Virus record (IMG/VR): IMGVR_UViG_2684622619_000009
Length of the DNA: 5,837 nt
Source of the DNA: a virus
Lineage: Duplodnaviria > Heunggongvirae > Uroviricota > Caudoviricetes
Direction: 5' to 3' (one strand)
Shown here: in pieces, positions 4,166-5,300 of the stretch
Layout: each line of letters begins with the position of its first letter
How positions within the stretch are numbered: the first letter of the stretch is position 1
Notes under the pieces: generated by a model
What the model was told of the DNA's origin: nothing
Seen by the model: the letters and a program-made list of their open reading frames with translations, nothing else
The model's database searches: none
Position numbers and translations under genes: made by a program

Positions 4166-4194
4166 TTTGCGGGAAAAGGATAGTTAAGTAGAAT
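4166..4194 (+). promoter_or_regulatory. Putative sigma70 promoter of the hok mRNA
   Basis: -35-like TTTGCG/TTGCGG (4166-4172), 16-17 bp spacer, -10 TAGAAT (4189-4194); the predicted transcript start near 4201 coincides with the conserved hok 5' leader sequence. Confidence 0.4.
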
Positions 4195-4198
4195 TGCT

Positions 4199-4226
4199 GC
4201 GGGTGCTTGAGGCTATCTGCCTCGGG
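4199..4226 (+). promoter_or_regulatory. hok mRNA 5' leader: stem-loop GAGGC-TATCT-GCCTC and the 5' partner of the fold-back pairing
   Basis: GCGGGTGCTTGAGG (4199-4212) is complementary to CCTCAACGCACCCGC (4492-4506) with one bulge; hairpin at 4209-4223. The layout resembles the 5' end of plasmid R1 hok mRNA as I recall it. Confidence 0.5.
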
Positions 4227-4243
4227 CATGAACACCAACGGCA

Positions 4244-4319
4244 NNNNNNNNNNNNNNNNNNNNNNNNNNNNNNNNNNNNNNNNNNNNNNNNNNNNNNNNN
4301 NNNNNNNNNNNNNNNNNNN
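4244..4319. other. Run of 76 N (masked or unresolved sequence) inside the hok locus
   Basis: Directly visible. It interrupts the hok leader and hides the start of the hok reading frame. Confidence 0.99.
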
Positions 4320-4442
4320 ATCGTCATCTGTTTAACCGTCATAGTGACGGCACTGGTAACGAGGAAAGACCTCTGCGAGGTGCGAATCCGAACCGGTCAG
4401 ACGGAGGTCGCTGTCTTCGTAGACTACGAATCTGAGAAGTAA
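4287..4442 (+). CDS. hok: Hok/Gef family type I toxin (HokC/HokD-like); N-terminal ~11 codons fall inside the N-run
   Basis: Visible translation 4320..4439 is IVICLTVIVTALVTRKDLCEVRIRTGQTEVAVFVDYESEK, stop TAA 4440-4442. It closely matches the Hok/Gef core as I recall HokC/HokD (…ALVTRKDLCEV.IRTGQTEVAVF…). Start 4287 is inferred from a ~51-aa family length and assumes the N-run length is accurate. Confidence 0.8.
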   Translation, partial: XXXXXXXXXXXIVICLTVIVTALVTRKDLCEVRIRTGQTEVAVFVDYESEK

Positions 4443-4449
4443 GAGACCA

Positions 4450-4506
4450 GGCGGGGGAGTAATCTCCCGCCACCTCTGATGTGTCAGGCATCCTCAACGC
4501 ACCCGC
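4450..4506 (+). promoter_or_regulatory. hok mRNA 3' structured region: post-stop hairpin and fold-back-inhibition (fbi) element
   Basis: Hairpin GGCGGGGGAG-TAAT-CTCCCGCC (4450-4471) with no U-tract; 4492-4506 pairs with the 5' leader at 4199-4212. Confidence 0.5.
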
Positions 4507-4561
4507 GCTTTACCATACTGAAAATGCTGTTTGAATGTTCATCTCTGAAAGAGGACTATGA

Positions 4562-4906
4562 ATGAAAAAGGTATTGATTGCAGCACTTATTTCCGGTGTG
4601 TCTTTTGGCGCTTTTGCACAGCAGGGTGGTTTCCAGGGGCCAGAAGCAGAGCGTTCAACAGTAGCGCAGGCAAAAGAACTGAAGGATGATGCATGGGTTA
4701 TCCTTGAAGGGAGCATCGTTAAAAAAGTGGGTGATGAACGTTATGAGTTTCGTGACAATAGCGGGACAATTGTCACGGATATTGATGACAGCGTATGGGC
4801 CGGGCAGAATGTTTCTCCGAAAGACAAAGTAAGAATTGAGGGTGAAATTGATAAAGACCTGAGCAGTGTTGAAGTTGATGTAAAGGCACTGAAATTATTA
4901 AAGTAA
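4562..4906 (+). CDS. YgiW/YdeI (BOF, bacterial OB-fold) family periplasmic protein with N-terminal signal peptide
   Basis: ATG 4562 is 5 nt after GAGGAC (4551-4556). Signal peptide MKKVLIAALISGVSFGAFA, then QGGFQGP and the pattern DDAWV.L.G.IV...Y.F.D.SGTI..DID...W.G..V.PKD.V.I.GE.DKD..SVE.DVK, which fits E. coli/Salmonella YgiW(VisP)/YdeI from memory. Product is 114 aa. Confidence 0.85.
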   Translation: MKKVLIAALISGVSFGAFAQQGGFQGPEAERSTVAQAKELKDDAWVILEGSIVKKVGDERYEFRDNSGTIVTDIDDSVWAGQNVSPKDKVRIEGEIDKDLSSVEVDVKALKLLK

Positions 4907-4922
4907 CCGCCCCTGCTTGTTA

Positions 4923-4951
4923 AGCCCGTCTTACTGACGGGTTTTCTGTTT
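4923..4951 (+). terminator. Rho-independent terminator downstream of the YgiW-family gene
   Basis: Stem CCCGTC (4925-4930), loop TTACT, stem GACGGG (4936-4941), followed by TTTTCTGTTT (4942-4951). Confidence 0.6.
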
Positions 4952-4978
4952 GTACATTCCGGCGTATTGCCTTACAAT
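4950..4978 (+). promoter_or_regulatory. Possible sigma70 promoter for the downstream two-gene unit
   Basis: TTGTAC (4950-4955), 17 bp spacer, TACAAT (4973-4978). Weak -35; prediction by eye only. Confidence 0.3.
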
Positions 4979-5027: not shown

Positions 5028-5300
5028 ATGACACAACACATAAAATCCCACAATTCTGAAGCCGACCCGGAAATTAAGCAGGGGAGGCGTTTTCGTGCGC
5101 CTCAGTATGGCTGGTTTCACTATCTGTTCTGTACGATCGATGAGGCAGATATGCTTCAAGAGGCGTATCTGCGTCGCGGTGTCTGTGTGGAGCGGAGTCT
5201 GAACGCTGATCGTCTGACCTGGACCGTTTCTGTATATCTTCCTGTTCGTGCACATCTGCCACGGACACATGCCTGCTACCGTCAGCGCGTCTGGAGGTAA
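5028..5300 (+). CDS. Hypothetical prophage protein (90 aa), positionally equivalent to the small gene preceding DUF968 genes in Qin-like prophages
   Basis: ATG 5028 follows GGAGA by ~6 nt; stop TAA 5298-5300 sits 1 nt before the GTG of the next gene. No recognisable family. Preferred over the antisense ORF 5013..5270 because of operon context. Confidence 0.45.
   Translation: MTQHIKSHNSEADPEIKQGRRFRAPQYGWFHYLFCTIDEADMLQEAYLRRGVCVERSLNADRLTWTVSVYLPVRAHLPRTHACYRQRVWR

Follow-up and report, generated by a model that had tools for sequence, protein, structure and literature searches.

A BOF/YgiW-family gene lies in the 3′ untranslated region of a prophage hok/sok locus and travels with it

The DNA analysed here, a 5,837-nucleotide (nt) stretch of IMG/VR virus record IMGVR_UViG_2684622619_000009 (Caudoviricetes) that we call the window, carries a hok/mok/sok type I toxin-antitoxin locus followed by a gene for a 114-amino-acid (aa) protein of the BOF/YgiW family, hereafter the BOF gene, and by an intrinsic terminator; a 90-aa open reading frame (ORF) and a DUF968 gene come next (Table 1). 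A first-pass annotation, made from the letters alone, had described positions 4443–4951 as a compact unit and apparent moron lying between the hok locus and the DUF968-like gene, in a prophage rather than at a chromosomal locus. The prophage assignment held: the window is 100% identical to many Escherichia coli O157:H7 chromosomes and belongs to a contiguous lambdoid prophage. The neighbours were described correctly in part, in that hok does adjoin the gene and it is the 90-aa ORF that precedes DUF968, and the range needs trimming, its first 70 nt (4443–4514) being hok 3′ untranslated region (UTR).

Table 1 Coordinates of the hok–BOF cassette and its immediate neighbours in the window
Feature	Position	Strand	Details
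Hydrophobic peptide ORF, 27 aa	4076–4159	+	MTWPEAFTTVGIAMAVALVVYSICRWG; ATG overlaps the DUF551 stop (ATGA); just upstream of the hok promoter
hok promoter-like element	4166–4194	+	TTTGCG, 17-nt spacer, TAGAAT (4189–4194)
hok/mok/sok type I toxin-antitoxin locus	4201–4442	+	Leader with tac 4201–4212, sok on the opposite strand, hok coding sequence
hok 3′ UTR stem-loop	4450–4471	+	GGCGGGGGAG-TAAT-CTCCCGCC
fbi (fold-back inhibition) element	4492–4504	+	CCTCAACGCACCC; complementary to mRNA 5′ end 4201–4212
Junction	4515–4561	+	AT-rich, 47 nt, holds the ribosome-binding site; no terminator
BOF/YgiW-family gene	4562–4906	+	114 aa; predicted signal peptide encoded at 4562–4618; predicted mature protein 95 aa
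Intrinsic terminator	4922–4953	+	9-bp stem (4922–4944), 5-nt loop, T-rich tail TCTGTTTGT
Promoter-like site	4951–4978	+	TGTACA, 16-nt spacer, TACAAT; upstream of the 90-aa ORF
90-aa ORF (phrog_1212)	5028–5300	+	Right-hand neighbour in BOF-bearing and BOF-less alleles

The window protein belongs to the BOF/YgiW family and has an OB-fold. Its family profile scores far exceed chance: it matched the Pfam BOF profile (PF04076) with E = 1.9 × 10−33 and 115.1 bits (cut-off 25.8) and the NCBIfam model NF033674, 'NirD/YgiW/YdeI family stress tolerance protein', with 136.8 bits (cut-off 35), narrowly passed TIGR00156 (112.3 bits, cut-off 108.15), and failed the YdeI equivalog model NF007471 (64.8 bits against a cut-off of 179). 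The sole solved relative found by sequence (phmmer) was E. coli YgiW, PDB 1NNX, with E = 3.5 × 10−29. An AlphaFold model built on eight relatives comprises an N-terminal helix followed by β-strands, with block-mean pLDDT (predicted local distance difference test) values of 88–97 over residues 31–114, and Foldseek ranked 1NNX first among PDB matches to this model (template-modelling score 0.91, target-normalised), with other OB-folds next. The N terminus, MKKVLIAALISGVSFGAFA followed by QQGGF, has a Sec-type layout with a basic n-region (MKK), a hydrophobic core with 9-residue Kyte–Doolittle means of up to 2.6, and an A-x-A site. Residue Q20 aligned with the start (residue 1, EQGGF) of the YgiW chain crystallised in 1NNX, and the site between AFA and QQ is kept in all homologues aligned. 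We infer a 19-aa signal peptide cut at that site, leaving a protein predicted to be periplasmic and acidic when mature (isoelectric point 4.6, charge −6). The ribosome-binding site AAGAGGA (4549–4555) stands 6 nt before the ATG. In these respects the first-pass annotation was borne out, having named the family, the ribosome-binding site and the terminator correctly, and the signal peptide that it named fits the sequence features.

We found the gene at the position where a hok locus normally has its terminator. Homology to hokD of the K-12 Qin prophage spans the hok coding sequence, the 3′ stem-loop and the fbi element and ends at about 4514; beyond that point Qin hokD has a terminator (AACCCGCTTCGGCGGGTTTTTG), and the window has the AT-rich junction, the ribosome-binding site and the BOF ORF. 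The stem-loop at 4450–4471, present also in Qin hokD and all variants, is no terminator because no U-run follows it. Scanning IMG/VR with a 20-nt fbi motif yielded at least 120 phage hok loci, 111 of which had at least 500 nt of downstream sequence. A canonical terminator directly 3′ of fbi was present in about 100 of these 111 loci and absent from all 8 BOF-bearing ones, as it is from the window. Empty-site alleles were also recovered: in about 43 BOF-less IMG/VR loci, homology to the right flank of the window is regained 45–59 nt after fbi, from position ~4972, and the resumed flank reads TTACAATTCGC ... CACCGGAGAA.CCGATG, where the 90-aa ORF starts. Because the BOF-less loci share the same flanks, the BOF cassette amounts to a clean indel of ~455 nt that displaces the hok terminator.

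Qin and the BOF-less phage hok loci occupy the same slot of the nin region, upstream of DUF968 (ydfU) and Q, and their hok coding sequence is 95% identical to that of the window; they keep the hok terminator directly after fbi, and what follows is rem or, with nothing between, the 90-aa ORF. Rem is a different cargo in the BOF-equivalent slot of Qin. The 90-aa ORF was considered as a Rem homologue and rejected (E = 0.44); it accompanies the DUF968 gene in every case, with or without BOF, and lies outside the cassette. A distant pair in the nin region of a metagenomic lambdoid prophage (L015, 3480–4480) has a BOF protein 67% identical to that of the window and a strongly diverged Hok, with tac and fbi RNA elements nearly identical to those of the window, and here a canonical hok-type terminator (AAACCCGCTTAGGCGGGTTTTTT) follows BOF. 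Judged from its sequence, the L015 layout suggests that an ORF was inserted between fbi and its terminator. This architecture of a hok 3′ UTR with BOF seems not to have been described before, and in the literature we found no functional study of a phage BOF copy and no described hok–ygiW link; the search led only to a genome-wide association study (PMC11950266) and to a paper on hokW–sokW (PMC8621323), both taken up below.

We then compared the surroundings of related copies. IMG/VR holds 47 close BOF copies (83–100% identity), 46 of them with upstream sequence, and in 46/46 the fbi element lies 55–57 nt before the BOF ATG. Among the matches is a contig of exactly 5,837 bp, probably the window itself. 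Right flanks of these copies fell into two types, 35 nin-type and 11 of the type found at the attR end of Stx (Shiga toxin) phage 933W, and left flanks were variable. In two records, L161 and L168, the flanks differ in type: where the left is 933W-like the right is nin-like, or the reverse. Such mixed flanks suggest that crossovers between prophages take place at the hok–BOF cassette. Further copies of the pair were found in the O121 nin region and outside phages. On the IncY plasmid pHX138.261ft_1 (L232, 3495–4471), hok–BOF lies between insertion sequences IS5 and IS1 and encodes the same Hok protein as the window; only seven plasmid records matched the query over most of its length, of which several resemble phage or chromosomal pieces and one is a genuine IncY copy. 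IncY is the P1-type phage-plasmid replicon. In a non-prophage chromosomal islet of E. coli assemblies (L004–L007), hok–BOF stands between a cytochrome c peroxidase gene and mrp–metG; the islet BOF is 81% identical to the window BOF, and its Hok (L004, 3842–3997) has Gly for Cys at position 30, where the other E. coli cassette variants have Cys. Complete E. coli genomes contained no copy of this islet variant at high identity, the best match, at 85%, being the O121 nin-region variant. BOF is therefore obligately linked to hok across four kinds of location: the nin region, the 933W attR end, an IncY plasmid and a chromosomal islet.

Beyond these cassettes the linkage ends. GTDB species representatives yielded 43 loci with more distant BOF relatives (38–64% identity), for the most part in Enterobacterales including Erwinia, Pantoea and Xenorhabdus; neither tblastn with a set of five Hok proteins nor a search for the fbi motif recovered hok upstream of any of them. 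Since no hok lies near the GTDB relatives, the pairing is confined to the E. coli-type cassette and the one metagenomic prophage. After near-identical copies, the nearest relatives of the window protein are 114–115-aa E. coli variants (81–85% identity), followed by 127–128-aa proteins at 55–61% (BLAST) or 60–67% (alignments). Some of these longer relatives are chromosomal, in a Pantoea genome and two metagenomic contigs, and others are in prophages past tail-fibre genes; on the strength of the latter, BOF genes are recurrent prophage cargo in enterobacteria.

On its right side the mobile cassette ends with the terminator after BOF, directly after which identity to 933W stops. Over the 1.6 kb scanned, no other site resembling a terminator appeared on the + strand, and so none before 4922; the hairpin of this one folds better than all 200 shuffles (z = −2.7). 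A promoter scan found no σ70 promoter from the end of hok to the BOF start codon. These results bear on whether the gene is a moron. The lambda morons bor and lom are envelope-targeted cargo of atypical composition, present in some related phages and absent from others, and classical morons have their own promoter. As cargo the BOF gene conforms, being an indel between the same flanks with its own terminator and an atypical G+C content (43.8% in the BOF ORF and 36.4% at 4507–4561, against 51.2% in the window and 50–56% in flanking genes). Unlike classical morons, it has no promoter of its own that we could find and appears to use the hok transcription unit.

An autonomous moron, that is, an independent promoter–ORF–terminator unit expressed from the repressed prophage with hok a mere neighbour, is accordingly an unlikely account. 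It would explain the gene's own ribosome-binding site and terminator, the G+C content below that of the surroundings and the presence or absence of the gene between identical flanks, and other enterobacterial prophages do carry a hok-free BOF past their tail-fibre genes, a classic moron site. Apart from the missing σ70 promoter, however, the cassette starts exactly at the expected position of the hok terminator, hok keeps a fixed distance in 46/46 copies, and the layout is retained in the distant pair. For the same reasons (no promoter found in the spacer, no hok terminator, hok always at a fixed distance), we do not regard the compact unit of the first-pass annotation as self-contained.

The hok/mok/sok locus itself is well defined. 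The Rfam model of the sok/hok leader (RF01794) scored 113.5 bits against a gathering score of 59 and begins at L002 18201, which corresponds to window position 4201, and RefSeq places a Hok/Gef family protein (WP_000813258.1) at the hok position. A transcription start at about 4201 is inferred from the sequence. The promoter-like element upstream was read by eye, scoring under the threshold of the promoter scan; the region is conserved in all cassette variants by alignment. The hok coding sequence, visible from 4320 to its stop at 4442, is 100% identical to 933W hokW. A run of 76 Ns at 4244–4319 precedes it. In identical complete genomes this run corresponds to 159 bp of contiguous sequence, which takes in the start of mok, the promoter and RNA of sok, and the opening 33 nt of hok. 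A contig join at the N-run is thereby ruled out, and because contiguous hok/sok sequence fills it in complete genomes, the run represents masking or an assembly gap. With the BOF family match, both findings that would have overturned the first-pass annotation failed to appear, in its favour. In the predicted fold of the 840-nt hok–BOF RNA, 4201–4212 pairs with 4492–4504 over 12 bp at a mean probability of 0.99, and this tac–fbi pairing leaves the BOF cistron as a 3′ extension.

The same gene is present in well-characterised phages. L0136 of 933W and H0152 of VT2-Sakai (Sp5) are 99% identical to the window protein at the amino-acid level, with one V/I difference, and in 933W the gene likewise follows hok/mok/sok and precedes the same terminator; the 933W record labels L0136 'similar to hypothetical YgiW and YdeI proteins of Escherichia coli' and places it beside mokW/hokW/sokW. 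Window 4320–4953 is 98% identical to the hokW/L0136 region of 933W, VT2-Sakai and many Stx phages (98.3% for the Sp5 record). Against 933W, the stretch that runs from hok promoter to junction is 99–100% identical and BOF 97.7%, and identity collapses right after the terminator. The two cassettes are placed differently: 933W-type Stx phages have theirs beyond the tail genes by attR, on the strand opposite the late genes, and the window cassette lies in the nin region between DUF551 and DUF968 genes. That arrangement of the whole nin region recurs in ~360 complete genomes, so the suggestion that such a gene is unfamiliar in characterised lambdoid prophages cannot stand alongside its 99%-identical counterparts in 933W and VT2-Sakai.

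Across complete E. coli genomes, megablast found the gene in 548 of 5426, and full-length matches at ≥99% identity in 511 records. Among the matches listed, the genomes with the gene are largely O157, O103, O111, O145 and similar Shiga toxin-producing E. coli (STEC). By tblastn, the protein was at least 99% identical in 44 phage records and 98% in one further Stx1c phage. The gene is already known at the level of annotation, having been recorded in Shiga-toxin phages since 1999, in RefSeq (WP_000756596.1) and in PHROGs, where it is phrog_1230 of unknown function.

These numbers also speak to whether BOF could be a decaying, functionless passenger kept by an addictive hok/sok, which we consider scarcely credible. 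A few truncated variants do occur (P0003, P0006, P0007, P0011 and P0051), and a disease association of the kind described below, with haemolytic uraemic syndrome (HUS), would be expected from linkage to Stx2a phages alone. Against decay, the ratio of nonsynonymous to synonymous substitution rates among hok-linked BOF variants (77–82% identical) is 0.17–0.23, from which we conclude that BOF is under purifying selection; the ≥99% matches are full-length, and the signal peptide and core residues are conserved in the BOF alignment.

Named relatives outside phages indicate what the protein may do. K-12 YgiW (b3024; reported as VisP in Salmonella) shares with the window protein the BOF OB-fold and a QGGF motif, which in the window protein follows the predicted Sec signal, at 47–49% identity; K-12 ygiW is divergent from qseBC, whereas the window gene is not beside qseBC but linked to hok and mobile. 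YdeI/OmdA (b1536) belongs to the same Pfam and NCBIfam family and is periplasmic, yet its identity to the window protein is 34–37% and its equivalog model is the one that the window protein failed. Vibrio cholerae SipA (VCA0732), the member of the family with demonstrated binding of antimicrobial peptides and hence our model of what the window protein may do, also binds OmpA and cross-complements ygiW (PMC6370654). SipA is induced by a two-component system, and the window gene has no linked regulator of that kind. Within the family, tolerance phenotypes for stress or antimicrobial peptides are known for YgiW, YdeI and SipA; YgiW and SipA confer peroxide and cadmium tolerance, and YgiW–OmpF and YdeI–OmpD interactions have been reported (PMC6370654).

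Taking these observations together, we consider it moderately probable that the locus is a bicistronic hok–BOF cargo cassette, carried within the hok/sok locus, that exports an acidic periplasmic OB-fold protein. Transcription would start at the hok promoter (4166–4194; start at ~4201) and run through mok/hok and fbi; with no terminator after fbi, it would continue across BOF and stop at 4922–4953, giving a bicistronic hok–BOF mRNA of ~0.83 kb. Each firing of the hok promoter would therefore yield BOF, in the repressed lysogen as well, and hokW mRNA can be detected in Sp5 lysogens without induction (PMC8621323). After induction, BOF would additionally be expressed by read-through from pR. The hok domain of the long RNA would still be closed by tac–fbi pairing. 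In the periplasm, the acidic 95-aa mature protein would bind cationic peptides and/or porins, by analogy with YgiW, YdeI/OmdA and SipA, and the lysogen would gain a modest tolerance of envelope stress. The role in lysogenic conversion suggested by the first-pass annotation is plausible.

Several points weigh against this cassette model. Function is assigned by analogy, and identity to the named proteins is 47–49% for YgiW and 34–37% for YdeI. The window BOF has one N-terminal GGF-x-GP repeat where YgiW and YdeI have two, and this missing motif in the N-terminal linker makes the protein 16 aa shorter than either, a difference in length that had been noticed at first pass. Within the spacer, TACCAT at 4511–4516 matches the −10 hexamer at 4/6 positions, by eye and with no −35 partner, and a weak or non-σ70 promoter may lie within 4507–4561; co-transcription of hok and BOF is argued from the absence of recognisable signals. 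Finally, Takada et al. state no size for the hokW mRNA that they call 'full-length', and their paper is silent on the gene downstream of it (PMC8621323).

The experiments of Takada et al. also inform other accounts. They showed that hokW–sokW of Sp5, the VT2-Sakai prophage, acts as a toxin-antitoxin pair; their clone ends within the BOF signal-peptide codons (primer YO-433), and in their deletion mutant the hok promoter and BOF are separated by a kanamycin cassette (PMC8621323). Because the clone stops inside those codons, Hok/Sok function is independent of BOF. This tells against the idea that BOF is a protein-level toxin modulator that binds or buffers the periplasmic tail of Hok, as does the scarcity of the pairing, most hok loci being without BOF. 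Direct electrostatic binding is disfavoured, since both partners are acidic, mature BOF with a charge of −6 and the C-terminal tail of Hok with one of −2. We regard such a partnership as very improbable, even though linkage is strict, the bicistronic layout is kept where Hok and BOF have both diverged, and binding of small peptides has been demonstrated for one BOF protein (PMC6370654).

A phage life-cycle factor, binding an outer-membrane protein against superinfection or modulating the envelope during lysis together with Hok, would sit well with the reported interactions of BOF proteins with the porins OmpF, OmpD and OmpA (PMC6370654) and with the position of the gene in early-operon territory, read through upon induction. 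Moreover, hokW–sokW affects lysis timing and phage yield, and the kanamycin cassette in that mutant leaves room for a polar effect on BOF (PMC8621323). The cassette nevertheless persists outside phages, in the chromosomal islet and between insertion sequences on the IncY plasmid, and for this reason a benefit at the level of the host, or hitch-hiking, fits better; we hold the life-cycle account to be rather improbable.

We assign a similarly small probability to a bolder version of the cassette model, in which hok/sok and BOF form a functionally coupled operon instead of having been joined by chance, the hok mRNA serves as an expression platform for a peptide-binding protein of the periplasm, BOF aids envelope resilience or phage release, and the BOF insertion alters activation of the toxin mRNA. 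In such an operon, fbi could be freed only after trimming from the 3′ end had removed the BOF cistron. If it were true, the published phenotypes of the hokW–sokW deletion would be partly polar effects on BOF, and the HUS association of 'ygiW_2' and a mokC-like gene (PMC11950266) would mark the cassette.

We also recorded the wider context of the cassette. In strain H6437, the left part of the lambdoid prophage contains cro, ydaT, an O-like gene with a DnaT domain, P, DUF1627, ..., DUF4014 and DUF551, and from hok onwards the order is hok, BOF, the 90-aa ORF, DUF968, RusA, DUF1133, tRNAs, ..., holin, lysozyme and terminase; the DUF1133 protein is probably a Q-type antiterminator. The 27-aa hydrophobic ORF upstream of the hok promoter, which had no PHROG match, is the left edge of the block shared with 933W and is 86.6% identical to the 933W copy at the nucleotide level; an unrelated 34-aa hydrophobic ORF takes its place in the O121, IncY plasmid and chromosomal-islet cassettes. 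To the right, the TACAAT of the promoter-like site at 4951–4978 is conserved among BOF-less alleles. Within the O-like gene, two clusters (201–260 and 482–530) of a ~10-nt repeat, (A/C)TGTCACG(A/G)C, with 10-nt spacing look like origin iterons; directly after them, at 529–575, are three copies of a 12-nt tandem repeat (ACAGATAAAGAT) encoding a TDKD repeat. Farther along the same prophage (L002 22669–25850), past DUF1133 and the tRNAs, at the place where Stx phages carry stx, come TerB-family, DUF3927 and then SASA-family esterase genes, the last presumably of the nanS-p type.

The cassette also bears on published work. A polar effect on BOF could contribute to the reported phenotypes of the hokW–sokW deletion, given where its kanamycin cassette lies (PMC8621323). 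An Irish case-control genome-wide association study found 'ygiW_2' and a mokC-like gene ('group_5720') to be associated with HUS (PMC11950266). These two are almost certainly the two halves of the hok–BOF cassette, and because the cassette rides on Stx phages, the association probably reflects linkage rather than causation. With about one tenth of complete E. coli genomes carrying the gene, mostly STEC, the finding of a prophage-borne BOF gene as it was first stated adds little. The revised anatomy, in which the gene occupies the 3′ UTR of a functional hok/sok locus and travels with it, may be of use, though the point is a modest one.

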